A stretch of DNA of 40,305 bases from Patescibacteria group bacterium (GCA_024277325.1 JAJRVN010000050.1:1-40305), one strand, 5' to 3'. Positions 481 through 37,279 are shown, numbered from the stretch's first letter. Numbers and translations are program-made. Notes: generated from the sequence alone by a model not told the origin.

Positions 481-514
481 CAAAAAATATCAAATTATAA
501 AAAAGTGAAATCCT

Positions 515-2013: not shown

Positions 2014-2050
2014 ATTATATGTTCATTCTAGCAAGTTATCTAAACATAAG

Positions 2051-3010
2051 ATGAGTGGTCAAAAAATAATATCTTATTCCTCGCCGGCCAAGGTTATTCT
2101 CTCCGGAGAGCATGCGGTGGTTTTTGGCAAGCCGGCTTTGGTTGCGGCGATTGACCTTAGGTTAAAAGTAAGTCTTTGGCCAAGTGATAAACAAAACCAA
2201 AGCCAGCCTATTTCAATAATAAAAAAACTTGTGGAAGCATACCTCCTTAAGCAAAAGATTCGTTTTCAAGCCCGGCCGTTTAACTATGCAATAACCTCCC
2301 AAATACCAATGGGCAGGGGTTTGGGGTCGTCAGCTGCCTTAGCCTGTGCCGGTTCAGCAGCAATTTTACAGTTCTATAGTCAAAAACAGGTTACAAAAGA
2401 AGAGATAAACACGGTTGCGTACGAGGTGGAAAAATATTATCACCAAACTCCATCCGGCGTGGACAATAGTGTCAGTTGCTTGGGTGGTTTGGTTTTTTAC
2501 CGGAAAGAATTCGAGTTTTTAAAAAACATCAACCTCTTACCCTTTGATATTCCCAGCTCAATAAATAAGCGGCTTTTTTTGATCGACAGTGGCAAAGCCA
2601 AAGAATCAACAGCAAAGATGGTTTTAAAAGTTAAAAACAGCCTTATCAAGCAAAACAAAAACAAGGTGCTGTCCGATATAGAAAACACCACCAAAATGAT
2701 GGTCATTGCCCTTAAACAAAACGATGTTTGCGGTTTTAAGTCAGCTATTAATATAAATCAAAGATTATTGGCAAAATTGGCTGTGGTTTCTCCGTCAACC
2801 AAATTATTGCTTAAGAAACTCGGGCAATATGGGGTCGGAAAAATAACCGGAGCTGGAGGGGTTGCTGAAGGAAGCGGGTATATTCTTTTCTTTGCCGATC
2901 AAGTGGACCAACTATGTCATTACCTTGATAAACATAAGATAACCTATTTCAAATTCAGCCAAGATAATAAAGGAACCATTAACCTGTCTCAGGTTGAGAA
3001 AAAATATTAA
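2051..3010 (+). CDS. mvk: Mevalonate kinase (GHMP family)
   Basis: PAKVILSGEHAVVFGKPALVAAID, PMGRGLGSSAALA and GKITGAGG correspond to GHMP motifs I-III in a mevalonate-kinase arrangement. Confidence 0.85.
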   Translation: MSGQKIISYSSPAKVILSGEHAVVFGKPALVAAIDLRLKVSLWPSDKQNQSQPISIIKKLVEAYLLKQKIRFQARPFNYAITSQIPMGRGLGSSAALACAGSAAILQFYSQKQVTKEEINTVAYEVEKYYHQTPSGVDNSVSCLGGLVFYRKEFEFLKNINLLPFDIPSSINKRLFLIDSGKAKESTAKMVLKVKNSLIKQNKNKVLSDIENTTKMMVIALKQNDVCGFKSAININQRLLAKLAVVSPSTKLLLKKLGQYGVGKITGAGGVAEGSGYILFFADQVDQLCHYLDKHKITYFKFSQDNKGTINLSQVEKKY

Positions 3011-3032
3011 GTTGTTACTATTGATAAATTAT

Positions 3033-4067
3033 ATGCATCATATCTCTAAACCAAAAAAGAAAAAGGCCTCGGCCATAGCAAATAGCAACATAGCTCTAAT
3101 CAAATATTGGGGGAAAAGAGATGATGAGCTTCATCTTCCTTACAATAACAGTATCAGCGTAACCTTGTCCGGCTTGTTTACTCATACAACGGTTGATTTT
3201 AACAAAGAATATTCTCAAGATGTCCTGATTCTAAACGGAAAAAGGATAAAACCAGATAATGATAAATATAAATACATAGCGAAGTTCTTAAACAGCCTGC
3301 GCAAATCCTTTCCCCAAAAACTTTCCGGTCTTAAAATCAAAATTGTTTCTAAAAATAACTTTCCAACCGGAGCCGGACTTGCTTCATCGGCCTCAGGCTT
3401 TGCCGCCTTGACCGCTGCTTGTAACGAAGCTCTTGGCTTGGGTCTAGACAAAAGACAACTGAGTATTCTGGCTCGGAGAGGCTCGGGTTCGGCTGCTCGG
3501 TCAATCTTTGGAGGTTTTGTTGAGTGGCATAAGGGTTCTAACCAAGATGGGTCCGATAGTTACGCCAGCCAAATAGCCGATAAAAATTACTGGCCCGAGT
3601 TCAAAATTATTATATGTACCACTAATACAAAAGAAAAAGAAATAAAAAGCCGAGCCGGCATGAGAACAACCATAAAAACTTGTCCATTCTATTCCGGGTG
3701 GCTCAAGACCATAAAGCATGACATTGAAATAGCCAGACAAGCTATTACTGAAAAAGATTTCAGCAGCCTGGGTCAAATAGCTGAAACCAACTGTCTTAAG
3801 CTACATGCTCTGATGATAACAACGTATCCACCCATCATTTATTGGAACGAGTCAACAATTAGCCTTATACGCTCTATACTTAACTGGAGAAAGGAGGGTT
3901 TGGAGTGCTACTTTACCATAGACGCCGGCCCGCAAGTTAAGATTTTATGCCGCAACAGCGATACTGCAACAATCATTAAAAAGTTAAAGGATATGACCTT
4001 TATAAAAAACATAAAGTTGTCACAGCCGGGTTCCGGAGTAAAAATTAGTAATTTTCATTTATTTTAG
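3033..4067 (+). CDS. mvaD: Diphosphomevalonate decarboxylase
   Basis: ANSNIALIKYWGKRD, FPTGAGLASSASGFAAL and RRGSGSAARSIFGGFVEW are textbook MDD motifs. The ORF is open from TTG 2994, but ATG 3033 lies just after the mvk stop (3008-3010) and gives a normal-length N-terminus. Confidence 0.9.
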   Translation: MHHISKPKKKKASAIANSNIALIKYWGKRDDELHLPYNNSISVTLSGLFTHTTVDFNKEYSQDVLILNGKRIKPDNDKYKYIAKFLNSLRKSFPQKLSGLKIKIVSKNNFPTGAGLASSASGFAALTAACNEALGLGLDKRQLSILARRGSGSAARSIFGGFVEWHKGSNQDGSDSYASQIADKNYWPEFKIIICTTNTKEKEIKSRAGMRTTIKTCPFYSGWLKTIKHDIEIARQAITEKDFSSLGQIAETNCLKLHALMITTYPPIIYWNESTISLIRSILNWRKEGLECYFTIDAGPQVKILCRNSDTATIIKKLKDMTFIKNIKLSQPGSGVKISNFHLF

Positions 4068-4074
4068 ATAAATT

Positions 4075-5202
4075 ATGATCAAAGTATCTGCTCCTGGGAA
4101 ATTAATGATCGCGGGCGAATGGGGGGTTCTGGAACCGCCTAATCCATGTATAGTAACCGCTATCAATAAGCGTGTGTTCGTGGAGGTGGAAACAAGCCAA
4201 AAAATAGAAATAGAGATGGAGGATTTTAATTTAAAAGCTTCGGGCACCGTACATAATGACGGACACTTGCGATTTGACCAAAAAATGTCCTCTAGTAATT
4301 TGGATTTGGTTAAGTTTGTCAAAACCGCTATTGAAATCTTCAATCAATATACGGGGGGTATAAAACCATTAAGGATCAGAACTTGGTGTGATCAGGTTGG
4401 CGAAAAAAGAACAAACAAGGTAAGTTCCATTGGTTTTGGCTCTTCTGGAGCCAGTGTGGCGGCTATTATAGCAGCCTTACTTAAGTTTCATGGTGAAGAA
4501 ATACAAACTTTCAAAGCTAGGGAAAAAATATATAAACTTGCGATGATTACTCATTATCTAGCTCAATTAAAGGTGGGCTCGGGCTTTGATGTGGCTGCCT
4601 CAACTTATGGTGGAGTAATCGCTTATCGAAGGCCTGACCCCATATGGCTGGTTAAAAAAATGTATGGAGCAAAAGATAAAGAGTTAAAAAAACTTATCGA
4701 TACAAAGTGGCCATTTCTTGAGATAAAGCCCTTAAATGTTCCCAACAAACTTCAATTGACAGTGGCCTGGACTCGGAAAAAAAACTCAACAAGTCAAATG
4801 ATTAAAAAAGTGTACGATTGGAAAAACAACGGGCATCAAAAGGAATATAAACAGATATGTAACCAGATTGGTTCTTTGGTCCACCAGCTAATAATTGCTT
4901 GGAGGAGTGAAGATGTAGATCAAATCTTAAATTTATTAAAAAAAGATGAATTACTCCTGCGGGAACTGGGAATAAAATCTGGAGTCGAGATAGAAACTAA
5001 AGAACTTCACCTTTTGTCCAAGATAGCTGGTAAGTTGGGCGCTGCTGGTAAGCTATCCGGAGCTGGTGGTGGTGACTGTGGTATAGCGGTATCTTTTGAT
5101 AACAAAACTTATCAAAAGATACGTGATTCTTACACTAAAAAAGGGTTAAAGGTTCTGGATGTCAACATAGATTTTCAAGGAATAAAAGAATATTCTGTAT
5201 GA
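4075..5202 (+). CDS. mvaK2: Phosphomevalonate kinase (GHMP type)
   Basis: KVSAPGKLMIAGEWGVLE, GFGSSGASVAAII, GSGFDVAAS, VAWTRKKNSTSQMIKKV and KLSGAGGGDCGIAVSFD match Gram-positive-type phosphomevalonate kinases. Confidence 0.85.
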   Translation: MIKVSAPGKLMIAGEWGVLEPPNPCIVTAINKRVFVEVETSQKIEIEMEDFNLKASGTVHNDGHLRFDQKMSSSNLDLVKFVKTAIEIFNQYTGGIKPLRIRTWCDQVGEKRTNKVSSIGFGSSGASVAAIIAALLKFHGEEIQTFKAREKIYKLAMITHYLAQLKVGSGFDVAASTYGGVIAYRRPDPIWLVKKMYGAKDKELKKLIDTKWPFLEIKPLNVPNKLQLTVAWTRKKNSTSQMIKKVYDWKNNGHQKEYKQICNQIGSLVHQLIIAWRSEDVDQILNLLKKDELLLRELGIKSGVEIETKELHLLSKIAGKLGAAGKLSGAGGGDCGIAVSFDNKTYQKIRDSYTKKGLKVLDVNIDFQGIKEYSV

Positions 5203-5258
5203 TTATAATTATACTGATAAAACCACGGTTATAAAAACAACTTAAGGAGATTTTAAGG

Positions 5259-5978
5259 ATGACTCTACTAAAACATATCGCCATTATTATGGACGGCAAC
5301 CGCCGCTGGGCCAGAAAACAAAACAAGCCAAGTTTTTATGGCCATCGTTGGGCTATGGAAAAGACCATCGAACCAATCCTTGATTATGTTAAGTCGATTG
5401 GGATTCCATACATTACTCTCTGGGCCTTTTCAACTGAGAATTGGCGGCGGGACCCAAAAGAAGTTAACAGCTTAATCAACTTATTCAGAGAAGGTTTTAG
5501 AAAATATGGTGAAAAATTCGTTCAAAAACAGATAAGATTAAACGTCATCGGCGACTATACGGCCTTTCCAAAAGACATCGTTAAGCTGATTGATTATTAC
5601 AAAGACAAAACCGAAGGGTTTACTTCTCTTACCGCCACTTTTGCCATCAATTATGGCGGCCGGGACGAACTGTTACGGGCCTTTGCCAAAATCAACAAGC
5701 AAGAGCCAGAAATTTTAACTAAGATAAGTTCGTCAAATTGGCAGGAAAGGAAAAAGCTGGGAAACGCGGTCAATAAATTCTTGGACACCGCCGGTATGCC
5801 GAATCCGGACCTCGTTATCCGCACCGGCGGCGAAAAAAGATTGTCCGGCTACCTATTGTGGCAGATTGAGTATGCTGAGTTGTTTTTCACCGATACTCTA
5901 TGGCCTGATTTTAGCCCAGATGAGTTAAAAGAAATTTTAGAAGAATACGCCAACCGCCAACGCCGCTTCGGCGGTTGA
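5259..5978 (+). CDS. uppS: Undecaprenyl-diphosphate synthase (cis-prenyltransferase)
   Basis: HIAIIMDGNRRWA, ITLWAFSTENWRR, RTGGEKRLSGYLLWQIEYAELFF and C-terminal RRFGG. An AAGGAG ribosome-binding site lies ~10 nt upstream. Confidence 0.95.
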   Translation: MTLLKHIAIIMDGNRRWARKQNKPSFYGHRWAMEKTIEPILDYVKSIGIPYITLWAFSTENWRRDPKEVNSLINLFREGFRKYGEKFVQKQIRLNVIGDYTAFPKDIVKLIDYYKDKTEGFTSLTATFAINYGGRDELLRAFAKINKQEPEILTKISSSNWQERKKLGNAVNKFLDTAGMPNPDLVIRTGGEKRLSGYLLWQIEYAELFFTDTLWPDFSPDELKEILEEYANRQRRFGG

Positions 5979-6407: not shown

Positions 6408-6426
6408 AGAGTAAAATCTGTGGGTG

Positions 6427-13889: not shown

Positions 13890-15386
13890 ATGAGGTTAAC
13901 GATAAAAAAGGCTTTGGCTTGGTTGGTTTTTGCTCTTTTAATTACGGTTTTGGTCGGTAGGATAAACTTGGTTTCGGCTCGAGTAATTCAGTTTGGGCCC
14001 GATAGTGGCGGTGGTGGTGTTATGAGTATACCAATTGTCCAAGAATGGTCTGATTCTTGTCAAAACGGCCGGGTCAGCTTTCAAACTTTTACAGCCGGAT
14101 GTGATCAAGGTAATTCAGACAATTTATTCACCAGCTTGTACTTGGCCTTTTCCAAATCGCTTTTAAGTATGGATTACAGCGGCGAGGTTACCTCTGATGG
14201 GGCGGTTCAGAAGATGTTTTCGCTTGTAAACAACATGGCCTTAAACGAACCGCCTGTTTCTTCCGGCTATTACTTGGCCGACTTGGGTAAAAATCTAGGC
14301 TTTAACTTGGTACCGGAAACCTACGCTCAAGAAACCAATTCGGTTTTGGGTATTGGTTTTTCTGCCTTTGCCGCGGTTTTAAAGCTGTGGCGAGCCTTTG
14401 CTGATATTGCTTTTGGCTTGATGGCCATCATCTTTTTGGTTATCGGCTTTTTAATTATGTTTAGATCCAAGCTTAGCGCTCAAACCGAGATCACCATCCA
14501 GTCGGCTCTGCCCCGATTGGCGGTCACTATATTTTTGATCGCCTTCTCTTATCCCATCGCCGGTTTTATGATTGATCTTATGTATTTGGTCATTTATGCC
14601 TTTATCGGCTTTTTGGGTACCAGCCACCTGATAGATAAAACCGTGGCTTTGCAACAGGTTTTCACCAGTCACCCGTTTAATATTCTTTTAGGTAAGGGTT
14701 TTGTCAGTCGGCCAACCGACACAATCACCGACTCGGTCGGCAGCTTAGTTAGTCAGCAGTTCGGCGGCTTGGTCGGTTTTTTGGCTAATAATTTTGTCAG
14801 CAGTGCCTTCTTTATGGTTCTTTTGGTTATTTTCCTTTTGTTTATCAGTTTTAAAATCTTTATCATCCTTTTAAAGGCTTATGCTTATATATTGATGCAG
14901 GTTATCTTGGCGCCGATTTATATTCTTGGCAACGCTTTTCCGGGTAGTTCAGCTTGTTCCTCATGGTTAAAGGGTCTTATAGCTAAGCTAGCCGTCTTCC
15001 CCATCGTCATCTTCCACATCATCATAGCGGCGATTCTGGTCGGGGCGACCGGCTGGGGAGCAAGCGAAAACTTGTTCTCGGGATCAGGTTCCAGGTTGTG
15101 GTCGCCTCCGTTAATGAACTTTGGTGTCACTACGACCGGTTTTGACGGCATTCTGGCCATTGTGGCCTTGGGCATCTTGTATATGGCTCCCAACGCCGCC
15201 GAGATGGCCGAACAACTACTCAAGGGTCAATTCAATATTAACGTTGGCCAATCTATGGGTGGAGCTGTTCAACAGTTTGCCTATCCGGCCAAACAATACT
15301 GGCAAAGGCGCGAAAGGCGAAAGAGTTATGAAGAGCAAGCTAGGGCTATGGATAAGTACCGCAATCTTGAAGAGAGGTCTAAATAA
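13890..15386 (+). CDS. Polytopic membrane protein; VirB6/TrbL-like candidate (by architecture and context only)
   Basis: 498 aa: N-terminal anchor, ~130-aa extracytoplasmic segment, then at least 6-7 long hydrophobic segments and a charged C-terminal tail (RRERRKSYEEQARAMDKYRNLEERSK). Located in the T4SS-like neighbourhood. The CDS is confident; the functional call is tentative. Confidence 0.45.
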   Translation: MRLTIKKALAWLVFALLITVLVGRINLVSARVIQFGPDSGGGGVMSIPIVQEWSDSCQNGRVSFQTFTAGCDQGNSDNLFTSLYLAFSKSLLSMDYSGEVTSDGAVQKMFSLVNNMALNEPPVSSGYYLADLGKNLGFNLVPETYAQETNSVLGIGFSAFAAVLKLWRAFADIAFGLMAIIFLVIGFLIMFRSKLSAQTEITIQSALPRLAVTIFLIAFSYPIAGFMIDLMYLVIYAFIGFLGTSHLIDKTVALQQVFTSHPFNILLGKGFVSRPTDTITDSVGSLVSQQFGGLVGFLANNFVSSAFFMVLLVIFLLFISFKIFIILLKAYAYILMQVILAPIYILGNAFPGSSACSSWLKGLIAKLAVFPIVIFHIIIAAILVGATGWGASENLFSGSGSRLWSPPLMNFGVTTTGFDGILAIVALGILYMAPNAAEMAEQLLKGQFNINVGQSMGGAVQQFAYPAKQYWQRRERRKSYEEQARAMDKYRNLEERSK

Positions 15387-15391: not shown

Positions 15392-18300
15392 TTATTTGCT
15401 TCCGGCCAAACCTTCCTTCAGAGCTAAGCCTGTAACTCCCAGACCAACCAAGCCGGAAACTATTAAGAATTCCTTGAAGATGTCATCCAAATCAAAGTTA
15501 AAGCCTAACCGGTACCAATAATAATACATTCGGCCGACGTGTTTTTTGGCAATATCCCTGACCATTTTATTATCTAACATACCATCGCCCTCAACCTTAA
15601 TCAAAAAGTCCATAATGTCCCGCTTATCCAACGTGTATTTTTCTCCCAACCAACTGGTGCCATTGAGCAAAGCCATTAAAGACACGCCCTCGCCTTTAAG
15701 ATAATAGGCCATATTCAATCTGAGTCTTTGAGCCCAATCAAACTGTCTGCTGTTATATACATCTCTTAGTGTGGTGGTCGCCACTACCGGCTGGCCGGTT
15801 AGCGGGTCGATACATTTAATTTGGCCGGTTTCATAAACCGGCAAACCTCTCTCATCTATCAACTGTTCACCTATCGGCAGTTTAAACGGCTTATCCCATT
15901 CGACCGGGTCGCTGTGGAACGGTGACCAGGGGCGCCTGGCTCTGTGGGCTTTGTACCAAGTAATCAAAAGGTCAACCAGCGGCTTCATAACCATGCGGAC
16001 GACGTCGGCCCCCAAGGTTGTTCCTTTTAGGATGCCAAAAATTTCATACAGGGTATCGCGGCTTGGCCGGCTGCTGAACCTAAACATCTGGTTACTAACC
16101 TTTTCCATAGCCACGGCATAGCGCATGAAATCAAAATAGTCGTTAAAGCCGAAGCCAATATCATACAAAGCCGTCGCCACCTCGTTATTTCTGATATTGC
16201 CGATGAACCGGTTCGACCACTTGGCCATAATGGTTCGCAAAACCAACAAGCCTTGTTTCCGCCTGTCTATCTCGGCTTGGTTACTGCCTAAGTGATCATA
16301 GTTGTTAGCATTAATCTTACCGTGGAGCATTCTTTCTAGTTGTTGGGTTTTTCTTCTGTTAAAACCTAAGAAAGTGTATAGGCCGTTATCTCCATATTTT
16401 TGTTCTTCGGTTAAATCGCCTAATTTATCCAAGACTAGTTTGATAGCCTCGGCTTTTTCGGGATCGTCAAAAAAACCGGTCAAGCCTTGTTTGTCCGGAT
16501 CTCTGTCTTGTTTGGCGTGCCAAACCCACTCGCTGCTATCATCACTCACACCGCCATCTTGTTCGATCCCTCCATAACCTAGCACCCTGACATCGCCAAC
16601 GGTTCTTAAGATAGGGTTGTCCTGGTGGTCTTCAAAAAATACGCATTGCAGGCCTCGGCGCAGTTTTTTTGCTTCAGAACTACTTAAATTAGGAATACCA
16701 AAAAAATCAACCAAGATTTTATCGAATACAGCTAAATCACCCTTGAGAATTCGAGACGGCGGCGGAGCTATTTGTTCCATTAAAATCCCGTCAACCCCGC
16801 CGACCGGGCCGCCATATTTGGTAATGTAGTGGCGGAAGGCTAAAATGGCTTTAACCTTATCTTTAGGATAGCCTTCATAATAACCTTTAAGGGCGTTGTA
16901 GTAACCGCCGGTAATTATCATCCACGAAACTGCCCCCATGCTCATAAACCTAAGTTGAGATCTGGCCCCATAATCAAGCGAATTATAATCTATGCCTTTA
17001 TCTTTTAAGACTTGCTTAATTACCCCCAATCTGATCTCTTCGATTTTTTCTATGTTTTCTTCATAAACGTATAACTCTACGTTTTTGGGAGTTAGGTTGT
17101 TTTTTTTATACTCTTCATAATCGCTTCCTGCCACGTCTTTCAGGTTGGCGGGGTACATCTCCCAAGCATCAATAAAATCGGCTAAAAAAAGATCTTGGTT
17201 AGCTACCTCTATTTTGCTTTTTTGCATAGCGTTTATTTCTCTTTCGTCAACCAGCGACCGTTGGTGAAAAAGTTGTTCGTAGCTTGATTTTAAAGTTCTT
17301 CTTTCCATCTCCATCATTCTCAAGAAGCCTCTGGTGGAAAGGCTGTCTCTTAACGGTAGGAGGTTGATTAATATGAGAATGTATTGTTGGTCAATTGACG
17401 GCAAGCTCTTGTTTTCTTCGCCCGGCCTCATAGACTCGGCTAAAAGGCGGCGGCTGGCATCGGCAAAAAAATTGTTCTGCAAAAGAGAAATAACTTTTTG
17501 CACTCTCTCTTTTGCCCCATCAGACAAGCTGTCTAAATCATAGTCGTAAAGATAAACCAAGGCTTTTATCTGATGATATTTCATAAGTTCTTCATCTTTG
17601 TTGTCAGGGTGATTGTACCTAATAGAATAAGCACTGTTGATAACCTGGCTCATTTTATCGACTATCTCGCGGGCTATTGGATCATCGGCATTAAGGATTT
17701 CTTGGTTTAATTTGCCATAAACCCTGGATACGTCTATTGAGTGGTTAAGTAGATCAACAAAAACCCGGCTTGGGTCATACGAAAAAAACCGATTATCAAA
17801 CCCTCTCTCAGCTTGGCGAGCCATAAATTGAGTCATGGCCGCTTCATAACTTTTAGATTGGGGATCGATTTGAGCCGGCGGTCTTAACTCGGGCATCGGT
17901 GAAATAATATCATCAACCTGGTGTTGCAGGCTGGCATGAATCTCAAAAATATGATGGAACCAATTAATCACGTCTCGGCTTAAGCTTAGCCGCTCAGCTA
18001 CCCGGCCGATAACCGTGCTTATCCTACCTTCGTCCAACAACTCAACCAACTCTTCTGATTCATCTTGGCCAAAGCCACGATCTATCAAAAGTTCCAGAAT
18101 GCTTTTGTAAGTTTTGGTTATTTGACTTAGTTTTTGGACGGTTTTAACTTGCTCCAAAACCATAACCATCTTTTCCAGCTTGCCGATCTCTTTTTCTAAA
18201 GACTGATACTCGGCTGTGTCCGGAGTTAATCCTCGAAGTTTGGCCTGCTTTTTAGCCAGGTCACCTTTAACTTCTGACAACCTAACCAAACCTTTTTGCT

Positions 18301-19633
18301 TTCTTATCTCACCAACGATACCGGCTAGAGTGTCTGTGTCGGGGTGTAAGCCAAGGTCTCGACTATCTTCGGATACAAGCAGGCTAAAGACTATTAATTT
18401 TTGCAGCTGTGGTGTTGCCAGCCGGCGGTCTTTAAGGTGGCCGGCCAGTTCGTTAAATATTTTACGGCCAAGAGCTGACAACTCTTCATTTGCTTTAATT
18501 TCAAGCCAAGAGCGCGGCCTGTCAACAGCTGATATCTGGCTCAGTTGGTTTTTTATCTGCTCGGCGGCCTCGCCGGGTGGAGGCGTTTCTGTTTCAACCA
18601 AGCCTGGTCGGCTTGGCTTAACTTTGTCAACAAACTCCTCTTTGATAACGTCAATAAAAACCGCTTGTTGTGGCTCAAGTTTGACTACTTGTAAACCTAT
18701 TTCGGTAGCATACTTAGTCAGCCAGTGGTCAATTTGTTGCCTTTCCTTATCACTCAACAGGGTTAAAAGGGTTGTAAAAAATGATCGGGCCCTCTCTTGG
18801 CGAACATCCGCGGCGACTGTTTCGTCTTCCATTGATTCAAATTGTTCAAACAAGTTATTATCAGCTTCAAGCTTGTCGATTAATATCTTGGGCAGCCCCG
18901 GCCGAGTCTTGATATCAACCAAGAGGTCAAGAATCAAATTGAGGTCTGTCTGTTGGTGTCGAGTCAGAACTTCTAATATTATATATTTATCGCTGTCGGG
19001 CCAATTAGAATCATCTGTTAAAAACTCATAAAAACTATCAATCACTTCTTGGTTGAGATTAACTTGGCCACTAGCTCCAACATCTATTGTGGGGCTGTCC
19101 GGGTGAGGCAGGTTCCTGTTGTACAGGTCAATAATTTGGCGATTGGCTGGATCAATCACTACTCGAATCAATTTTTCTTTTTCTTGCTTTTTGGCTCTCT
19201 TGGCCAAAAAACCAGGATACCAATTAAGCAGATCCGATACACGACTGTTAACACTGTTGTTTAACATGACTTGATCACCACCCTCAAGATCGGTTGTGAG
19301 CAAATTAAAAAGCCGCCTGGTTTGGGGAATGTCTTGTTGGAGAGACTCTATCAACCGATAATTACTTGCGGTTATATATATTTTTAAAATAAACCAAACA
19401 TCCTTAAATTTGTCATGTTTGGCCGCCCATTTTAAAAGGTCAACTAGGGCCCGCCTGGCTTCACCTTTTTTATACTCTTGCTCTTTGGGGATAAAATCCT
19501 TAACCTCGTTAATCGCTTGCAAACTGCCGGCGACAACTCCAGCTTCGGGGTTGGTAGAAATTTTGTCTGTTTCCGGCCTTAAGGCTTCGTTAATATATTT
19601 TTTGAGCGGGTAATTAACTTCAACTGATGTCAT
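15392..19633 (-). CDS. Giant orphan protein (1413 aa), predicted cytoplasmic with a single C-terminal tail anchor
   Basis: Uninterrupted 4.2-kb ORF. No N-terminal signal. One hydrophobic stretch (FLIVSGLVGLGVTGLAL) ~10 residues from the C-terminus. A manual scan found no P-loop (GxxxxGK[ST]) and no HExxH. TATAAT (19642-19647, minus strand) lies 8 nt upstream of the ATG. Confidence 0.7.
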   Translation of the reverse strand: MTSVEVNYPLKKYINEALRPETDKISTNPEAGVVAGSLQAINEVKDFIPKEQEYKKGEARRALVDLLKWAAKHDKFKDVWFILKIYITASNYRLIESLQQDIPQTRRLFNLLTTDLEGGDQVMLNNSVNSRVSDLLNWYPGFLAKRAKKQEKEKLIRVVIDPANRQIIDLYNRNLPHPDSPTIDVGASGQVNLNQEVIDSFYEFLTDDSNWPDSDKYIILEVLTRHQQTDLNLILDLLVDIKTRPGLPKILIDKLEADNNLFEQFESMEDETVAADVRQERARSFFTTLLTLLSDKERQQIDHWLTKYATEIGLQVVKLEPQQAVFIDVIKEEFVDKVKPSRPGLVETETPPPGEAAEQIKNQLSQISAVDRPRSWLEIKANEELSALGRKIFNELAGHLKDRRLATPQLQKLIVFSLLVSEDSRDLGLHPDTDTLAGIVGEIRKQKGLVRLSEVKGDLAKKQAKLRGLTPDTAEYQSLEKEIGKLEKMVMVLEQVKTVQKLSQITKTYKSILELLIDRGFGQDESEELVELLDEGRISTVIGRVAERLSLSRDVINWFHHIFEIHASLQHQVDDIISPMPELRPPAQIDPQSKSYEAAMTQFMARQAERGFDNRFFSYDPSRVFVDLLNHSIDVSRVYGKLNQEILNADDPIAREIVDKMSQVINSAYSIRYNHPDNKDEELMKYHQIKALVYLYDYDLDSLSDGAKERVQKVISLLQNNFFADASRRLLAESMRPGEENKSLPSIDQQYILILINLLPLRDSLSTRGFLRMMEMERRTLKSSYEQLFHQRSLVDEREINAMQKSKIEVANQDLFLADFIDAWEMYPANLKDVAGSDYEEYKKNNLTPKNVELYVYEENIEKIEEIRLGVIKQVLKDKGIDYNSLDYGARSQLRFMSMGAVSWMIITGGYYNALKGYYEGYPKDKVKAILAFRHYITKYGGPVGGVDGILMEQIAPPPSRILKGDLAVFDKILVDFFGIPNLSSSEAKKLRRGLQCVFFEDHQDNPILRTVGDVRVLGYGGIEQDGGVSDDSSEWVWHAKQDRDPDKQGLTGFFDDPEKAEAIKLVLDKLGDLTEEQKYGDNGLYTFLGFNRRKTQQLERMLHGKINANNYDHLGSNQAEIDRRKQGLLVLRTIMAKWSNRFIGNIRNNEVATALYDIGFGFNDYFDFMRYAVAMEKVSNQMFRFSSRPSRDTLYEIFGILKGTTLGADVVRMVMKPLVDLLITWYKAHRARRPWSPFHSDPVEWDKPFKLPIGEQLIDERGLPVYETGQIKCIDPLTGQPVVATTTLRDVYNSRQFDWAQRLRLNMAYYLKGEGVSLMALLNGTSWLGEKYTLDKRDIMDFLIKVEGDGMLDNKMVRDIAKKHVGRMYYYWYRLGFNFDLDDIFKEFLIVSGLVGLGVTGLALKEGLAGSK

Positions 19634-19829
19634 CTTGGCTTATTATACTATAAATACGGCGGTTATCACTATAAACCAAAAGGGTAATATTATCCTCTTT
19701 TTACTATCTCAATTAAGTTTTTTCTCTTTTCAATTCGATGGATCAGGTATTTTTTGATTTTTTATAACCCAAACCTCACCCTTCTTGCCAAAGCCATCGG
19801 CACATATTGGTTTTGAGGTAAAATAGGTT

Positions 19830-22800
19830 ATGGCTGAATTCTCAACCGCTCGACCCAAGGTTTTAGAACCATTCAAACATGCTTGTTGGCGACAAAAACA
19901 GACCATAGACGACTGGCTTGAGTGTTTAAATAAGTTGCTTTTTATCATCGAGGCCGAGATCAATGATTTCAAATTAACCATCGTCTTTCAAAAAGAGAAA
20001 AAACAAACTACCCTTAAAAAAAGCGCCCGGCCGGTTTTAATCAAAAGCTTTGTTAGGTTTCTGCACCGATCGTTTGCCAACCGACTGCCTTTTGTCGTGA
20101 CTCCGCCACCGGTCGTTGATCGTGATCAAGATTTATCCATAAGCCAACTTGATAGTTTATCCAGTTTGGTCCAGGAAGTTTTGGTCATCTTATACCGAGC
20201 CTCCTTTCTGGCCCACCTGGCTGAAGAAAGAATGTCTTTGGCCGACATCTTGGCGGCGGTGCCGGATTTACCCGCTATTGATTCGGGTTTGATAAATAAA
20301 ATAATCAGCGATTATAAGCTTGCCATCGATAACCAGCTTGCCGGTGGCGATAACGCCCCCAGCCAATTGGTCGATACTACTAACTTTAAAATCAATCTTT
20401 CGCCCGACCAGTCCGACCGCGTCGTTTGGGACAAGCCTATCTTAAAACAAGATGACCAAGGTAACTCTATCCTGGACATTCCGCCACTGTCCAGCCAAGA
20501 TTTTGGTCACTTGGTGCGCTTATCCCAAAACCTCGAGCAATCGCTTAAGGCAACTATCTTGATCGATGGGATCGGCCTGTCAGGCCCTCCCACTTCCCCA
20601 GAAGAAACCACCTTGTTTAAACTAGCTGGCAGTATCAGTCAAAAAATCTCAAGCCGGGTTTTGTCTGAGGTCATCTCCTCGGGAACAAGCTGGGTAGATC
20701 CTGATTTTATTTCCAGCCGCATAGCTCAAGAAACAATTAGAGAATTAACCTGGCATTTTAAGCAAGATGGTTTAAATAAGTTAAGTAATCAAGGTTGGTT
20801 GGTTTTAAGGAGTTCTTTTAAAAAACATCCGGAGGTTTTATTTTCTCGATTTGAAGCTGCTATTCAAAAAACCATTGTCCCTAAAGCACCGACCGAGGCC
20901 GGCCCAGCCCCAACCGGGCCAAGCCCCGCCCCGCCACCAGCCCAAATCGGCGAATTTCCATTGACGGAAACGGACCGGGGTGGGGAGCTAACCCACCAGG
21001 CCGCTATAGAAGACAATATTGTTGGCTTGCGAGTTTTGGCCAAGGCGGCCCGATTAACCAAGGCGGCTCCAACCAACCCAAAGGACGTTAAACAGATTAT
21101 CAGGCGGCAGGTTTATTCCCAGTTAGTCCAGGCGGCCCGATTAACAAAAGAGAGTAGTTTGGATAAACCTCAGCTTGAGGCTTTGGAAAGAGTGGCTGAC
21201 AAAGCCGCCAACTATCTGGTTTATATCAGTCCGGCCGATCCTGTACTTAACCTTAGACCAAAACAAGCGTACTTGGAATTAATCAGCCAAGAACCTGTGT
21301 TACAAGACATAATTTCTCCGGAAAAGATCGAATCGACCATTGAATTGGTCGGTGACATTAACCGCAAAACCCTAACCTCAAGCGCTGCGCCGATGATAAG
21401 ATCTGCCGCAAAACTGGGCCTTGTTGAACAAATCCTTATGCGCCGGGTTATAAGCAAGCACTATCAGTCAATCATTAATAGCGGAACTGATCCCACCGCT
21501 CTTTATATTGGCTTGTCAACCCCATTAGAAACGCTTCAGGGGCGATTGGATTGGATCGGTGGAGGTTCGCCTATTAACATATTAGGCCTTTCTATACCAA
21601 CGGCTCCGGCATTAACCGAGGCTGACCCCGGCTTTGCCAGGCTCAAGTCTTTAACTCAACAGATTGCCGAACTTAACCGACGAGGAATCTTGGACGACTC
21701 AGACCTTCCTCTTATCATCAGATGGCTCAGGTTAAAAAACAGAATGCGCCAGTCTTATGACGATAAAAAGAAAGCTGTCAAAAATATCATCCCCCACAAC
21801 ACAACCATTATTTTGAATAAGGTTAAAAAGAAGGTTGGCGGCTCGACTGTGGTCCAAAAGATCTTGGACATCTACCAACATCCTTTTGTTGAAAAAATCG
21901 TTGGCGATGCGACTGATTTCCTGTCTGTCCCCAGAAAGACATTGGCTGAGAAAATCAACTTTCATCTTACAAACAAATCTGGCTGGCTGCAAAAGAAGAT
22001 AGAGACCAAGCTCGAAGCTGACAAGACTTCGTTCTTTCGGATCTTTGATACGTCTGAACCTTTTAAAAAACGATTAAAACTCTTTTTTAAGGGAGAAAAT
22101 GGTTGGTTTAAGGTCCACATTGTCGATCCTAGTTTAAAAAAACACGGTGACAGCTCGGTTTTTGCCTTGGGCCAGCGCGGCCTAAACTGGCTCCAAGAAA
22201 GATGGCAGGGGGTCAAAAAAAGCAAAGCCTATAAGTTGGGTTTAAAGGTTAAAAAAAAGATTTTAGCCTGGCAAAAAAAATTCAAAAAAGTTAAAGACCA
22301 AATCAATAAGATTATCGGCAGGGTAGAAAAATACATCGAGCTTTTATCACCCAAGAACCTGTTAAGGAAAGCGCTTGTTACCACTATAAGGCGACTTGGC
22401 CAGTTGTCGGTCAAGTTATTAGCCAAGCTTGGCGTTAAGGTTTCTTTGTCGGCGACCGGGGTCGGCACTGTCGTAGCCATCGCCATGTTGGCTGTTGATT
22501 TTTTCAGCTTGTTTAAAAAACACTGGCAAGAAATACTCTCGGTCCTGATCGGATTGCTGTGGTATCTATTGTCTAATCTGGCTGCTTTTATCGGCGCCGT
22601 GGTCGGGGCCGGCCTCTTCTCGGTTATTGCCCCCTTTTTAGGCCCGGCAGCTCCGGTTATCGGCGGTTATCTTGGTTGGCAAGTTGGCAGCGGTATCGGC
22701 AATTTAATCAGTGCTGTCAAGTCATTTTTTAAAGGCCTTAGTAACTGGTCGTCCTCTATTGGTTCTGGAGCCGGGGTCGGTCCGGGAACCGCCATTGGTG

Positions 22801-23960
22801 TCGGGGTCGGGGCTGGGACCGCTTCTTTAATTTTGGTAAACGCCATCATCAGTCCGGCCTTTTTACTTCCTGGCGAATACCAAAACACGCCGGGGTCCAA
22901 ATATATTAAGGTTTACAAGATAGCCGAAGTCAATGATGTCTATAAAAAAACCGCCGGCCCGTCATACCCTATGCAGCTAGCCAATTTGGCCGCTGAACGC
23001 TCGATTAAAATTTCATACAAAGTCATCATCGCCGCGGTTGACCGGCCGGTAACCATCAACCAGGTTCAAGATAAAATTACCATTTACACCAAAGATGGCG
23101 ATCAGGTTAAGACAACAAACCAAACCATCGAGCTTGTCTTGGCCAACACCAATCAAAAACCAGATACCCCAATCGAGATTGCTACCGAAAACCCGGTTGA
23201 GCTAGTTGGTAGTTTTAGGCTGGGGCCAAAGTATAAAGACAGTCGGTTGCTTAATCAAGTGGATGTCGGCGGCTTGGTTGATGGCAATCAGGAATCCAAG
23301 TCCGACGTCTTTGAGGTCTTGGTCGGCGACGCCCCTAAAAGCAGTTGCTCTCAAACGGCCGCTAGGTCGCAAGTTTTAACCGAAAAACTCTATCGTTGTG
23401 AGGCGGGCGCTCCCCCAAGCCAGGCCCCCAACTGCTACTGTCCAACAACTAATCAGCGAGGTTATTACACCGACACTTTTCATTGTGGCCAAAAACCACC
23501 CTTTGCCAACTATCTTCACTCGGCTGACCCAACCGTCGAAGATATCGAAGATAATTATGTTCAGTGCACCGAATTTGTCCACCAAGCCTTTGAGGATGTC
23601 TTCGGCCAATCCACTAACGCTATTTGCAGCAAGGGTTCGCCTGGCGGGTTTTTGGGCCATGCCGGCCAATGGCTGTCAAGGGCGTCGCGTTTTTGCCCCG
23701 ACCAGTTCGACATCATCCAAAACAACGGCACAAGCGACCCTATGCCTGGAGATATTTTAGTTTTTTCCGGTGGCAACGAATACGGCCACGTGGCTATAGT
23801 CAGCCTTGATGGCAGCGACCCGACTGGCAATGTTGTTCGTTTTTGTGGGGCCAACACACCGAAAAAATGTTATAACATTGCTAAGGGGCAGGTTTGGCAA
23901 AGCCCGTTTAACAGCTTAAAATTAGTGGGGTGGTTAAGGTATAAGTTTTGCCAGCAATAG
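19830..23960 (+). CDS. Giant membrane protein (1376 aa) with a C-terminal CHAP-family peptidoglycan hydrolase domain
   Basis: ~850-aa signal-less N-terminal region with a Pro-rich linker (PKAPTEAGPAPTGPSPAPPPAQ). Lys-rich segment. Gly-rich multi-helix hydrophobic block (~nt 22440-22870). C-terminal CHAP motifs: YVQCTEFVHQAF (Cys codon 23565-23567) and PGDILVFSGGNEYGHVAIV (His codon 23787-23789). Confidence 0.75.
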   Translation: MAEFSTARPKVLEPFKHACWRQKQTIDDWLECLNKLLFIIEAEINDFKLTIVFQKEKKQTTLKKSARPVLIKSFVRFLHRSFANRLPFVVTPPPVVDRDQDLSISQLDSLSSLVQEVLVILYRASFLAHLAEERMSLADILAAVPDLPAIDSGLINKIISDYKLAIDNQLAGGDNAPSQLVDTTNFKINLSPDQSDRVVWDKPILKQDDQGNSILDIPPLSSQDFGHLVRLSQNLEQSLKATILIDGIGLSGPPTSPEETTLFKLAGSISQKISSRVLSEVISSGTSWVDPDFISSRIAQETIRELTWHFKQDGLNKLSNQGWLVLRSSFKKHPEVLFSRFEAAIQKTIVPKAPTEAGPAPTGPSPAPPPAQIGEFPLTETDRGGELTHQAAIEDNIVGLRVLAKAARLTKAAPTNPKDVKQIIRRQVYSQLVQAARLTKESSLDKPQLEALERVADKAANYLVYISPADPVLNLRPKQAYLELISQEPVLQDIISPEKIESTIELVGDINRKTLTSSAAPMIRSAAKLGLVEQILMRRVISKHYQSIINSGTDPTALYIGLSTPLETLQGRLDWIGGGSPINILGLSIPTAPALTEADPGFARLKSLTQQIAELNRRGILDDSDLPLIIRWLRLKNRMRQSYDDKKKAVKNIIPHNTTIILNKVKKKVGGSTVVQKILDIYQHPFVEKIVGDATDFLSVPRKTLAEKINFHLTNKSGWLQKKIETKLEADKTSFFRIFDTSEPFKKRLKLFFKGENGWFKVHIVDPSLKKHGDSSVFALGQRGLNWLQERWQGVKKSKAYKLGLKVKKKILAWQKKFKKVKDQINKIIGRVEKYIELLSPKNLLRKALVTTIRRLGQLSVKLLAKLGVKVSLSATGVGTVVAIAMLAVDFFSLFKKHWQEILSVLIGLLWYLLSNLAAFIGAVVGAGLFSVIAPFLGPAAPVIGGYLGWQVGSGIGNLISAVKSFFKGLSNWSSSIGSGAGVGPGTAIGVGVGAGTASLILVNAIISPAFLLPGEYQNTPGSKYIKVYKIAEVNDVYKKTAGPSYPMQLANLAAERSIKISYKVIIAAVDRPVTINQVQDKITIYTKDGDQVKTTNQTIELVLANTNQKPDTPIEIATENPVELVGSFRLGPKYKDSRLLNQVDVGGLVDGNQESKSDVFEVLVGDAPKSSCSQTAARSQVLTEKLYRCEAGAPPSQAPNCYCPTTNQRGYYTDTFHCGQKPPFANYLHSADPTVEDIEDNYVQCTEFVHQAFEDVFGQSTNAICSKGSPGGFLGHAGQWLSRASRFCPDQFDIIQNNGTSDPMPGDILVFSGGNEYGHVAIVSLDGSDPTGNVVRFCGANTPKKCYNIAKGQVWQSPFNSLKLVGWLRYKFCQQ

Positions 23961-23969: not shown

Positions 23970-24566
23970 ATGACAATTAAAAAAAAATTAATTATCGGCC
24001 TTATTAGCTTGATTGTTTTGATTTTTGGTCTTTGGTGGCGATATTCTTATAACCAACCCCGAATCGTTGATTACTTTCCCAGTCGGGGAGTTGGTCTGTT
24101 TGATTTTGTCAGAGTTGAGTTTTCTCGTCCCATATCAGCCAAGATGGTTCGCCTTGAGGTCAGACCGCCATTGAAGATAAGTGTCAAACAACAAGCCGCG
24201 GCTAACACCATTAGGTGGCGGGTCATTGGCTTGCCAAAAGAAAAAACAACCTACAACTTCAGTGTTTTTTATAAAAACAAGCTTATTAAGACTTGGCAAA
24301 TGACGCCTCCCCCAGGATCGACCGGGGTCGGTATTTATCCGGTCGGGTTTGAAAAAGGGTTGGAAGATTATGTTAAAAGAACGCCGATATTGCAAAACAT
24401 ACCAACCAACAATCCTTATTTTAGGGTTAAGTATTATTCTGAATCTTATTTAGCCATCTATCTTTTGGGTCAAGATAAAAACAGGTCGATGGCCGAGGCC
24501 AAAAGGTGGCTTGATAGCTTGCCGGGGGGGTCGCGCACCAACCTCAAAATCGATTGGGTTAAATAA
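23970..24566 (+). CDS. Bitopic membrane protein with an Ig-like (SbsA/Big_5-like) ectodomain; function unknown
   Basis: N-terminal transmembrane segment LIIGLISLIVLIFGLWW. The pattern FPSRGVGLFDFVRVEFSRPISAKMVRLEVRPPL...TTYNFSVFY resembles bacterial Ig-like surface domains. An AGGA ribosome-binding site overlaps the upstream stop. Confidence 0.5.
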   Translation: MTIKKKLIIGLISLIVLIFGLWWRYSYNQPRIVDYFPSRGVGLFDFVRVEFSRPISAKMVRLEVRPPLKISVKQQAAANTIRWRVIGLPKEKTTYNFSVFYKNKLIKTWQMTPPPGSTGVGIYPVGFEKGLEDYVKRTPILQNIPTNNPYFRVKYYSESYLAIYLLGQDKNRSMAEAKRWLDSLPGGSRTNLKIDWVK

Positions 24567-24607
24567 AAAACTTGAGGTATTACCTTTGATCATAGTATCA
24601 TTAAAAT

Positions 24608-25597
24608 ATGCCAGTTAAAGAGCACCCGGTTCCGCAAAATATTACCAGCTACCGCTTTAGGTTGGTGGGTAGCATGACCCTACAGCAATTCTCCGAATTG
24701 GCTGGTGGTTTTGGGTTGGGTTTTATTCTTTGGAAGCTGCCGATTTACCCCATCATCAAGATGCCTTTGGCTGTTGCGGCCGCAGTTTTAGGGATAATGA
24801 TGGCCTTTGTTCCCATAGAGGATCGGCCACTTGATATGTGGTTAACCGCGTTTGTCAAGCATATTTATAGGCCAACTTTGTACTTGTTTAAGACCAGGCC
24901 GACCCCACCGCCTTTTTCTCTTTATCAACCACCAAAAAACAGCGGTCAGAAAAATGACCTTGATGGTGTGAAGGCCATTGACCCTAATCAATATCTAAGC
25001 TCGTTTACTACTAACAAAACCTCTCCTGTCACCGACTATGTCAATCGCTTATTTGATGAGGAAAAAGTCAAGCCTGTTAAAAGTCGAGCCAAACAAGTGC
25101 AACCATTGGCAAAGCCCATTGTTAAGAAACTGCCGATCTCTCCGATTACACCCAGTACCCCAACTAATCAAATCAAGGCCATTAAGTCGAGGCCGATTAT
25201 GCCAAAGACAAAAACAATCAAAACAGCAGCCGGGCCGGGCCGGTTTAAGGCTAAGAGGGTTAAAAAACCGGTGGTAGCTCAAAAACCAACCTTCGAGCCC
25301 AGCCTACCAAAGACCAAGCTTAAAAACACGCCTGTGGGCATGGTGGCTGACCTCGCCGGCAAACCGATCGTCGGCGCCATCGTTGAGGTTAAAAACGTTA
25401 AGTCCGACATTCCTTTAAGGGTGACAAAAACCAACATCTTGGGACAGTTCTTTTTTGGTAATCCCCTGCCGACCGGGGAATATTTAATAGAAGCTGAGCA
25501 CGCAGCTTATGCCTTTAAACCTGTCAAGATAAGTGTTAAAAACAAGGTTATTTTACCGATCAAGATCACCGGCCAAAAACAGGTGGAAAATGTATAA
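24608..25597 (+). CDS. PrgI-family (VirB3-like) membrane protein fused to a Lys/Pro-rich linker and a carboxypeptidase-regulatory-like beta-sandwich
   Basis: The N-terminus VPQNITSYRFRLVGSMTLQQFSELAGGFGLGFILWKL...MMAFVPIEDRPLDMWLTAFVKHIYRPTLYLF follows the PrgI/TcpE-type pattern. The C-terminus GMVADLAGKPIVGAIVEVKNVKSDIPLRVTKTNILGQFFFGNPLPTGEYLIEAEHAAYAFKPVKISV is CarboxypepD_reg-like. Confidence 0.6.
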   Translation: MPVKEHPVPQNITSYRFRLVGSMTLQQFSELAGGFGLGFILWKLPIYPIIKMPLAVAAAVLGIMMAFVPIEDRPLDMWLTAFVKHIYRPTLYLFKTRPTPPPFSLYQPPKNSGQKNDLDGVKAIDPNQYLSSFTTNKTSPVTDYVNRLFDEEKVKPVKSRAKQVQPLAKPIVKKLPISPITPSTPTNQIKAIKSRPIMPKTKTIKTAAGPGRFKAKRVKKPVVAQKPTFEPSLPKTKLKNTPVGMVADLAGKPIVGAIVEVKNVKSDIPLRVTKTNILGQFFFGNPLPTGEYLIEAEHAAYAFKPVKISVKNKVILPIKITGQKQVENV

Positions 25598-25605
25598 TTA
25601 AGATA

Positions 25606-26316
25606 ATGACAAACCCAAAATCAATTGCTATCATCGGTCGCACCCAAGATGTCATCCATGTTAAAAACGTTGTTGATAACTTGGCGGTACTTAAGGACAA
25701 CACCTGTGTTCTTATTTTGGAAGTCGGCGCCATCAACTTCGACCTTCTGTCCGAAGAAGAGCAAGAAACCATTATCTTTGCCTATTCGGGTCTGTTAAAT
25801 TCCCTTTCTTTCCCTGTCCAAATCTATACCCGATCACAAAAGAAAGACTTGTCCAATTACCTGGTTTTTCTTGATTCAAAGATCAAAACCGTGAATAATC
25901 AGATTCTCAAAAAAAGGCTTTTGGACTATAAAAACTTCGTTTACCGCCTGGTAAAGGAAAAAAACGTCCTAACCAAAAAGTTTTACCTTATTATTTCCTA
26001 TAAATATTTCTCACCTCAAGTTGTCCCGACTAAATTTAATTTATTCGACTTGTTTTCCGGTAAAAAAAACAAACCAGCCAACTCGATTCCAGCCGAAAAA
26101 ATCGTCGAGCGAGCCAAAAACCACCTCATCCCTAAAAGAGACCATTTAATAAGGCAGTTATCAAGGATCGGCCTGCCCTCAAGACAACTAAGCTCTTCTG
26201 AAATCGTCAAGCTTTTCCACCACATCTATAACCCCGACCATCCGCTCAAGGTTATCAGTAGTCAAGAATACCTGACTACGTTGGTCAGCACCTCGAAAAA
26301 ACCAGGCCTTAGCTAG
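25606..26316 (+). CDS. Hypothetical protein (236 aa), possibly related to the pre-ATPase N-terminal region of VirB4/TraC-class proteins
   Basis: No P-loop. DVIHVKNVVDNLAVLKDNTCVLILEVGAINFDLLSEEEQETIIFAYSGLLNSLSFPVQIYTRSQKKDLSNYL loosely parallels the N-terminal region of the convergent VirB4-like protein. The similarity is weak and judged by eye. Confidence 0.4.
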   Translation: MTNPKSIAIIGRTQDVIHVKNVVDNLAVLKDNTCVLILEVGAINFDLLSEEEQETIIFAYSGLLNSLSFPVQIYTRSQKKDLSNYLVFLDSKIKTVNNQILKKRLLDYKNFVYRLVKEKNVLTKKFYLIISYKYFSPQVVPTKFNLFDLFSGKKNKPANSIPAEKIVERAKNHLIPKRDHLIRQLSRIGLPSRQLSSSEIVKLFHHIYNPDHPLKVISSQEYLTTLVSTSKKPGLS

Positions 26317-37275: not shown

Positions 37276-37279
37276 GGGT

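Follow-up and report, generated by a model that had tools for sequence, protein, structure and literature searches.

Type IV secretion systems (T4SSs) of Patescibacteria, or candidate phyla radiation (CPR), are MPF-FATA-like, lie near dnaA, and possess pilin arrays but no relaxase, and VirB6 has been described as "scarce" in Microgenomatia (PMC12102498). The T4SS is essential for epibiotic growth in one tested species, and its cargo and mode of transport are not known (PMC10633639, PMC12102498, PMC12857230). The essential T4SS cluster of S. epibionticum includes SEML1_0013 (VirB6-like, 1088 residues) and SEML1_0011 (998 residues), which both contain ARM repeat domains assigned from structure and were both scored essential in this one genetically tested CPR organism (PMC10633639). 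Proteins of this kind are referred to as extended VirB6, and the role of their hydrophilic domains is an open question (PMC12857230). In this study, we analyzed a stretch of 40,305 nucleotides from a Patescibacteria group bacterium (GCA_024277325.1, JAJRVN010000050.1; the whole stretch is hereafter called the window), which is a Microgenomates chromosome segment adjoining oriC. Its T4SS island contains a gene for a soluble, acidic protein of 1413 residues with only two cysteines (hereafter the giant). Considering its gene neighbourhood and that of its counterparts in other CPR genomes, we tentatively suggest, at somewhat less than even confidence, that the giant is a cytoplasmic-face accessory of the translocon formed by a VirB6-like protein and VirB4.

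The giant is the product of a real gene. The reading frame runs from an ATG without interruption (Table 1), and 1413 codons without a stop would be expected with a probability of about 5e-37 at the local base composition. Its coordinates, length, and neighbours are those given in the original prediction, which had been made from the window sequence. The best promoter-like match of the region ends 9 nt before the ATG, and no Shine-Dalgarno sequence precedes this start codon, which together suggest that the giant mRNA is possibly leaderless or nearly so.

To place the gene in a wider context, we mapped 80 virB4 loci from other CPR species, each covering 10 kb on either side of virB4. The giant itself was not found in any of them by tblastn, by the hidden Markov model (HMM) of its family, or by hhalign, which gave a maximum probability of 3.8% against 52 clusters of other large open reading frames (ORFs) near virB4. 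The 498-residue polytopic membrane protein encoded next to the giant, however, has a homologue in 24 of the 80 loci, and the positional count covers these 24, leaving out the 56 loci without a detected homologue. In every one of the 24, the polytopic gene abuts a convergent ORF of 379-1365 residues that has no predicted transmembrane segment, the two 3' ends being -3 to +290 nt apart and mostly less than 65 nt, and this ORF always faces a PrgI-TrsD-VirB4 operon whose three genes are co-directional (24/24 mapped GTDB loci). The locus maps give a canonical order of polytopic gene, convergent ORF, divergent operon, and dnaN with dnaA, the operon encoding the PrgI-like protein, TrsD, VirB4, a giant protein with central transmembrane segments (with a CHAP domain in some loci), and a single-span protein of ~200 residues. 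Altogether, the tail-to-tail junction is conserved in about 28 lineages. What stays constant in the locus is thus that the ORF meets the polytopic gene tail to tail and diverges from the PrgI-TrsD-VirB4 operon, and this position is kept while the sequence diverges beyond recognition.

In the window, the giant is convergent with the 498-residue gene, with the stop codons 5 nt apart, and divergent from the gene of a 1376-residue CHAP protein (hereafter the CHAP giant) across a 196-bp AT-rich spacer (32.7% GC, against 43.2% for the window) that separates the two ATGs, all as originally described. The divergent pairing with the CHAP giant, although true here, is not a general rule among the mapped loci. 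The CHAP giant lies downstream of virB4 in most of them, so that the pairing marks a sub-type only; the variant with the CHAP giant and the 198-residue gene at the front of the operon was seen in the window, L021, L023, and L074, in which the whole order is equal. In addition, the TrsD-like gene (25606-26316, plus strand) and virB4 (minus strand) are convergent in the window with their stop codons 9 nt apart, and since they are co-directional elsewhere, this points to a local inversion of virB4-dnaN-dnaA in the lineage of the window and L081/L082.

The positional counterparts of the giant are all acidic, Cys-poor, and devoid of predicted transmembrane segments, and none has a signal-peptide-like N-terminus except L080, whose N-terminus is hydrophobic. 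No Pfam domain was found in the six counterparts that were scanned. A phmmer comparison of all counterparts with one another yielded small clusters and sporadic weak links, such as that between P0001 and L037 (E = 0.004), which we do not trust. Since no similarity connects the giant with these counterparts, synteny is the sole argument for homology across the positional class. A 1443-residue ORF without transmembrane segment in L050 was dropped as a candidate because it is ClpB-like. In L063, a 1097-residue protein with ~13 predicted transmembrane segments is encoded directly upstream of virB4 (4406-7699, plus strand), where no separate giant without transmembrane segments was seen; this protein is a possible extended VirB6.

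Although originally described as an orphan, the giant belongs to a small family. When residues 214-1413 were compared exhaustively by phmmer with 1.84 billion representative proteins, five related clusters emerged, with E values from 7e-152 to 2e-10, namely P0002 (1339 residues, E = 7e-152), P0003/P0007 (1350 residues), P0004, P0005 with P0008 to P0010 (1231 residues, E = 6e-16), and P0006 (1256 residues, E = 2e-10), the homologues ranging from 1026 to 1350 residues in length. Their alignment contains 62 invariant columns, all within L532-Y1374 and almost all in residues ~740-1385, with no invariant His, Cys, or Ser, and by this measure we regard them as a genuine family. Measured in windows, close relatives are 27-51% identical to the giant from residue ~750 on, and upstream of it identity is 6-20%, which is noise. 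More closely seen, identity is at noise level for residues 1 to ~500 and weak for 500-739, and BLAST alignments to relatives begin at residues 504-560. The giant therefore consists of a variable N-terminal part and a conserved C-terminal module, and only the most conserved core of the latter (...LRTIMAKWS...FGILKGTTLGADVVR.MKPLVD..I.WYK) aligns significantly with the most distant relatives, P0005 and P0006. It is this unalignable N-terminal region of ~700 residues, along with fast divergence, that makes the giant look like an orphan.

The family is rare, and no member occurred in plasmids, phages, IMG/VR, or the metagenome contigs that were scanned. When the word index was searched with the full protein, with the family alignment, or with an alignment of a 258-residue conserved core, only the query itself was retrieved; as even the relatives known from phmmer were missed, negative results of this kind carry no information here. 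Likewise, no relative was obtained by pattern scans of GTDB genomes, JGI metagenome contigs, and IMG/VR, by tblastn of the giant against plasmids and phages, or among phage and plasmid records, PHROGs, and defence families.

All the recognizable relatives lie in a T4SS island together with a CHAP giant, a PrgI-like gene, and a gene of the 198-residue type, so that co-occurrence with the T4SS is strong at the level of gene neighbourhood. In L081 (P0002) and L082 (P0007), the order is that of the window (dnaN, VirB4, TrsD-like, in parentheses PrgI-like, ~200-residue gene, CHAP giant, and divergent giant), and in L082 a 495-residue polytopic gene and gmk follow beyond the giant. In L088 (P0004), the giant overlaps a convergent 503-residue gene, which is followed by the gene of ribosomal protein L25. 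The island of a distant clade (L085/L089 and L087) has a rearranged order, in which the giant lies among the CHAP giant, the PrgI-like gene, a ~195-residue gene, and a VanW protein gene, co-directional with and 75 nt downstream of a VirB2-like pilin gene pair; L087 nevertheless retains a convergent 483-residue polytopic gene. Thus, the giant is convergent with a polytopic gene in the window, L082, L087, and L088. As for the near-identical contigs L085 and L089, the CHAP giant (2381-6097) is present as two genes (573 and 659 residues) in one and as a single gene of 1238 residues in the other, so that either the gene has recently become a pseudogene or the split comes from a frameshift or sequencing error.

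No recognized domain was originally reported in the giant, and this agrees with our searches: neither the giant nor any other family member matched Pfam, NCBIfam, PHROGs, or PADLOC significantly, and PDB likewise yielded nothing significant, whether searched by sequence or by profile. Regular-expression scans of six family members for Walker A/B, HExxH, HxxEH, LPxTG, and HUH motifs gave no hit apart from a single HKH tripeptide in P0004, which is isolated and not conserved, in keeping with the earlier report that P-loop and metalloprotease motifs are missing. The giant has no N-terminal hydrophobic segment or signal peptide, again as reported, and self-BLAST revealed no internal repeats. The giant is not a paralogue of the CHAP giant, as the two proteins show no similarity to each other.

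When residues 520-1413 were modelled by AlphaFold2 from seven sequences of the family, the result was almost wholly alpha-helical with a few short hairpins (mean predicted local distance difference test score, pLDDT, 63; predicted template modelling score, pTM, 0.58), and the conserved module is accordingly predicted to be mainly alpha-helical. The model of the N-terminal part is helical only at low confidence (pLDDT 40, pTM 0.21) and too poor for a fold search. When the C-terminal model was searched by Foldseek, neither PDB nor BFVD contained a match at E<=1e-3; the best PDB matches, which are non-significant (E 0.03, TM-score ~0.1), were all alpha-solenoid scaffolds, among them importins, cohesin SA2, condensin, and FANCD2. 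The giant is possibly solenoid-like on this model, whereas the lack of a significant structural match and of internal repeats speaks against assigning it to the HEAT/ARM alpha-solenoids. In these profile, PDB, and fold searches, there was no confident match to a family unrelated to secretion, which is the outcome that would have told against the original prediction, and no significant match to a known fold.

The giant was also predicted to be tail-anchored. A single hydrophobic stretch does occur near the C-terminus, as the only hydrophobic peak of the protein, 8 residues from its end. When scored as the summed Hessa-scale energy of the best 17-mer or 19-mer, the tail of the window giant gave -0.2 and +4.7, respectively, and the best 17-mers of its relatives gave +2.2 to +7.0, as compared to -4.7 to +1.9 for real transmembrane segments of neighbouring proteins and +6.7 to +8.9 for the soluble VirB4, DnaA, and DnaN. 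The distant relatives end in ...GSGVGAIFS, with the hydrophobic stretch stopping after 12 residues. The tail keeps its place and its character across the family, consisting of small and of hydrophobic residues that in many cases lead to a K-rich end, but a membrane span is not kept. Since the energy is borderline here and the tails of relatives are too short or too polar for a membrane span, the tail anchor is at best a feature of the window copy, and for the family as a whole, a tail that touches the membrane peripherally or binds a partner is the better fit. Five positional counterparts (L049, L070, L052, L037, and L013) also end in a short hydrophobic stretch of small residues followed by a Gly/Lys-rich tail, such as ...LAGLAGLGISIGLGA...GGGGGGAHH and ...IFDVAQIVGGGGKK, which echo FLIVSGLVGLGVTGLALKEGLAGSK of the giant. 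A sortase or exosortase signal, or an LPXTG adhesin of the PrgB type, was ruled out by the lack of a signal peptide and of LPxTG, the hydrophobic stretch with its K-rich end being the sole resemblance to a sortase-type sorting signal.

Evolutionary rates were estimated from orthologue identity in two independent comparisons, the window against L081/L082 and L021 against L023. In this order, identity was 77% and 85.5% for VirB4, 57% and 81% for TrsD, 57% and 65% for DnaA, 47% and 48% for the polytopic protein, 45% and 54% for the PrgI-like protein, 44-45% and 47% for DnaN, 33-35% and 31% for the 198-residue protein, 26% and 26% for the CHAP giant, and 35% (C-terminal part only) and 21% (E = 0.013) for the giant or its counterpart, with 74% for Gmk in the window comparison only. 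By these values, the gene class of the giant is the fastest-evolving of the locus overall. The compared genomes are deeply divergent, however, so that the giant evolves only about twice as fast as DnaN.

The window genes around the island comprise dnaA, dnaN, yidC, mevalonate-pathway genes, uppS, ychF, gmk, and the gene of ribosomal protein L25, and the monoderm-type T4SS island itself comprises a CD1110-type VirB4, a separate TrsD-like gene, a PrgI-like gene, the CHAP giant, and two VirB2-like pilin genes (Table 1). Among GTDB genomes, the nearest VirB4 (78% identity) is that of a Candidatus Microgenomates metagenome-assembled genome, and relatives occur in hundreds of CPR genomes. The 498-residue neighbour was originally called VirB6-like. 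It has seven predicted transmembrane segments, no Pfam match of its own, and no PDB match, and just one of its 18 homologues matches Pfam TrbL/VirB6 (E = 0.0015), which makes the identification as VirB6 a weak one. The predicted layout of the CHAP giant is unusual: a cytoplasmic N-terminal part of ~866 residues without domain match precedes three transmembrane segments (867-1007), beyond which lies an extracellular part carrying the CHAP domain (1243-1326) and 11 of the 13 cysteines of the protein. A similar layout, with a long cytoplasmic N-terminal part and a central transmembrane cluster, characterizes a loose superfamily encoded beside virB4 in many CPR loci. Both window pilins have long N-terminal extensions, and the first contains 8 cysteines and the second a Pro/Thr-rich linker. 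Like the window with its probable ComF-like gene, S. epibionticum has a ComF-family gene (SEML1_0021) just past its T4SS cluster.

Table 1. Position of the giant gene, its parts, and surrounding features in the window
Feature	Position	Strand	Basis
Giant gene, ATG start, 1413 residues plus stop	15392..19633	-	
Variable N-terminal part, residues 1-739	17417..19633	-	windowed identity, BLAST, AlphaFold
Conserved C-terminal module, residues ~740-1385	15479..17416	-	family alignment, windowed identity, AlphaFold
Most conserved core, residues ~1118-1235	15929..16282	-	phmmer, BLAST (1131-1235), alignment
Hydrophobic Gly-rich stretch FLIVSGLVGLGVTGLAL, residues 1389-1405, then KEGLAGSK	15419..15469	-	only hydrophobic peak, Hessa-scale energy
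Promoter-like GTGATA-16 nt-TATAAT	19642..19669	-	consensus match only
Divergent intergenic region between giant and CHAP-giant operon, 196 bp	19634..19829		
Polytopic membrane protein, 498 residues, 7 predicted transmembrane segments, candidate VirB6 analogue	13890..15386	+	
CHAP giant, 1376 residues, first gene of the opposite operon	19830..23960	+	
Rest of CHAP operon: 198-residue single-span protein, 329-residue PrgI-like (VirB3-type) protein, 236-residue TrsD-like (VirB4 N-domain-like) protein	23970..26316	+	
VirB4-type ATPase, 605 residues, CD1110/MPF-FATA type, adjoining dnaN and dnaA	26326..28143	-	
Two VirB2-like T4SS pilin genes, 368 and 235 residues	8799..10660	+	
Mevalonate block: thiolase-like fragment, flavin mononucleotide-dependent isopentenyl diphosphate isomerase-like gene, three GHMP kinase/decarboxylase genes, then uppS	136..5978	+	
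255-residue protein, 3.9% Cys, 3.9% His, probably ComF-like	36565..37332	-	weak phosphoribosyltransferase match

The original prediction linked the giant to the T4SS-like system, and the linkage of the family to T4SS islands, the presence of a counterpart in all 24 further loci, and the lack of a match to an unrelated family bear this out. Three roles had been proposed, and of these a platform at the cytoplasmic face is the most parsimonious. The giant has no Sec signal and no transmembrane segment, is acidic, and is nearly Cys-free like VirB4, DnaN, and Gmk, whereas 11 cysteines are found in the exported part of the CHAP giant and 8 in pilin A; a cytoplasmic location is thus the default. Cys-poor composition was dropped as a marker of secretion, since cytoplasmic proteins of this genome are also Cys-free. 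We propose that the giant is produced in the cytoplasm, being transcribed as a unit of its own that diverges from the T4SS core operon, and would act at the cytoplasmic face of the translocon. There, its C-terminal module would dock on the VirB6-like polytopic protein, on the VirB4/TrsD ATPase, or on both, while the short hydrophobic tail may add peripheral contact with the membrane and the unconstrained N-terminal ~700 residues may form a lineage-specific scaffold or gate. The large hydrophilic (ARM-repeat-like) domains that form part of extended VirB6 proteins in cis would then have in the giant a counterpart encoded in trans. The fixed position, the linkage to the T4SS island, the helical model, the precedent of S. 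epibionticum, and the tails shared with counterparts all point this way, and on balance we hold this reading only tentatively, below even confidence.

Several observations weigh against such an accessory. Slow evolution, as in VirB4 and TrsD, would be expected of a machine part located at the cytoplasmic face, but the giant is the fastest instead, and the length of its class varies from 379 to 1413 residues. The family shows no similarity in sequence or profile to the positional counterparts or to any VirB6 extension, and simple gene fission from VirB6 would not be expected to leave two convergent genes. In the L085/L089 lineage, the polytopic gene is not adjacent to the giant. Finally, the structure model is of only moderate quality, with its N-terminal part of no use.

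The main rival to the cytoplasmic-face accessory, which we consider unlikely although to be taken seriously, is that the giant is a dedicated translocated substrate of the T4SS, serving as a putative effector or as a factor associated with the surface or the pilus. The machine would recognize the conserved C-terminal module and the tail, and the hypervariable N-terminal ~700 residues would bind or act on the host bacterium in an arms race. VirB/D4, Bep, and XVIPCD effectors combine a conserved C-terminus with a variable N-terminus, and the giant has this layout typical of T4SS substrates, together with the genomic linkage to the machine and the absence of a Sec signal from a protein encoded inside a secretion island. 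The conserved module of ~650 residues, however, is far larger than any known translocation signal. The giant is the fastest gene of the locus in two lineage pairs, on par with or beyond the 198-residue protein, the CHAP giant, and the pilins, and in its class both length and sequence change from locus to locus while the site stays fixed; yet the genomes are very divergent (DnaN 44-47%, DnaA 57-65%), and about twice the housekeeping rate also fits an unconstrained helical scaffold. Moreover, fast evolution is also seen in the N-terminal part of the CHAP giant, which is predicted to be cytoplasmic, so that rate alone does not report exposure to the host, and near-identical copies of the giant differ by 9 synonymous and 2 non-synonymous changes, which give no sign of positive selection but are counts too small for a ratio of non-synonymous to synonymous rates. 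A substrate would also fit the place of the giant beside the pilin pair in the distant clade and the recurrence of a hydrophobic tail with a K/G-rich end in several clusters, while strict constancy of the locus over class-level divergence is unusual for effectors. With no relaxase and no known substrate, the Patescibacteria T4SS has been proposed to export proteins (PMC10633639, PMC12102498). In a further-reaching version, which we regard as rather improbable, all Microgenomates-type T4SS loci would encode, at a constant position beside the VirB6-like gene, a hyper-divergent soluble giant as the cargo of an essential system or as an extruded extension contacting the host, with the C-terminal module as a new docking or translocation domain working without a coupling protein and the N-terminal half diversifying with the host.

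It is quite improbable, in our estimate, that the giant is a lineage-specific cytoplasmic protein unrelated to secretion, such as a cytoskeletal or housekeeping scaffold placed by the inherited gene order near oriC. It is true that dnaA, dnaN, gmk, and the L25 gene accompany the island in a conserved chromosomal setting and that no functional domain or interaction ties the giant to the T4SS. On the other hand, the housekeeping neighbours L25, Gmk, and UvrD come and go while the ORF without transmembrane segments keeps its place in 24/24 loci, and such a persistent junction among shuffling neighbours disfavours an unrelated housekeeping role. In the rearranged distant clade, too, the giant moved together with the pilin, CHAP-giant, and PrgI-like genes.

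We consider it highly improbable that the giant is a tail-anchored replacement of the type IV coupling protein (T4CP), selecting or energizing substrates in place of VirD4, which is the strongest form of the original suggestion of a functional analogue of the missing coupling protein. Its size, its cytoplasmic nature, the C-terminal hydrophobic stretch of this copy, and the lack of a T4CP gene in the 40-kb window would fit such a role, but no family member has Walker A/B or another nucleoside triphosphatase (NTPase) motif or a Pfam or NCBIfam T4CP match, the tail is not transmembrane-competent in relatives, and T4CP homologues, which are common in Patescibacteria and present but not essential in S. 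epibionticum, are usually encoded far from virB4 (PMC12102498), so that absence from one window is no proof of a missing T4CP.

The giant class is stable in position and invisible to sequence searches, and provides a concrete candidate for either the missing cytoplasmic platform or the missing cargo of this T4SS. Its recovery illustrates that synteny can reveal "dark" components past the reach of HMM and hhalign searches. Residues ~740-1385 define a module that can be used for expression, pull-down, or modelling against VirB4, TrsD, and the VirB6-like protein.

When compared with known systems, the surrounding T4SS is of a known kind, and the giant is a component without a detectable relative of known function or fold. 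We know of no described MPF-FATA component that is a soluble, domain-less protein of 1,000-1,400 residues without a transmembrane segment. The CD1110-type VirB4, TrsD, PrgI, and CHAP hydrolase of the window are those of MPF-FATA systems such as pGO1 Trs, pCF10 Prg, and pIP501 Tra (PMC12102498). The gene class of the giant is absent from both a profile-based survey of Patescibacteria T4SSs from 2025 (PMC12102498) and a review from the same year (PMC12857230). It is not a conjugative relaxase, as no HUH or relaxase motif, helicase P-loop, or MOB match was found and the HKH of P0004 is not conserved. Like the coupling proteins VirD4, TraG, and TcpA, the giant is large, is encoded in a T4SS locus, would face the cytoplasm, and could receive substrates, but it lacks the P-loop NTPase motifs, the N-terminal transmembrane anchor, and any family match that would place it among T4CPs of the VirD4/TcpA type. 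Legionella DotM, DotN, IcmSW, and LvgA are likewise non-ATPase proteins at the cytoplasmic face, which widen substrate reception with DotL (PMC7280309); unlike the giant, they are small and built around a T4CP, none of which is evident here, and no homology to them was found. H. pylori CagA, Xanthomonas X-Tfe with XVIPCD, and Bartonella Beps resemble the giant in lacking a Sec signal, being encoded in or beside T4SS genes, and being large, helical, and fast-evolving with a conserved C-terminal part, but there is no similarity, and the ~650-residue module of the giant is much larger than their known signals.

A further parallel is with the extended VirB6 proteins, to which Rickettsiales VirB6 paralogues and the C-terminal domain of F-plasmid TraG add further hydrophilic domains of this type. 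The giant is not a VirB6 or extended VirB6 itself, since it has at most one borderline hydrophobic segment against at least five transmembrane helices, the polytopic protein being its 498-residue neighbour. Unlike the hydrophilic domains of SEML1_0013 and SEML1_0011, it is encoded by a separate gene on the opposite strand, and no sequence, profile, or significant structural similarity was shown, the S. epibionticum proteins being compared by description only. Both are large hydrophilic modules of helical or solenoid type, highly variable in sequence and tied to a polytopic channel protein, the tie of the giant being an invariant tail-to-tail gene junction.

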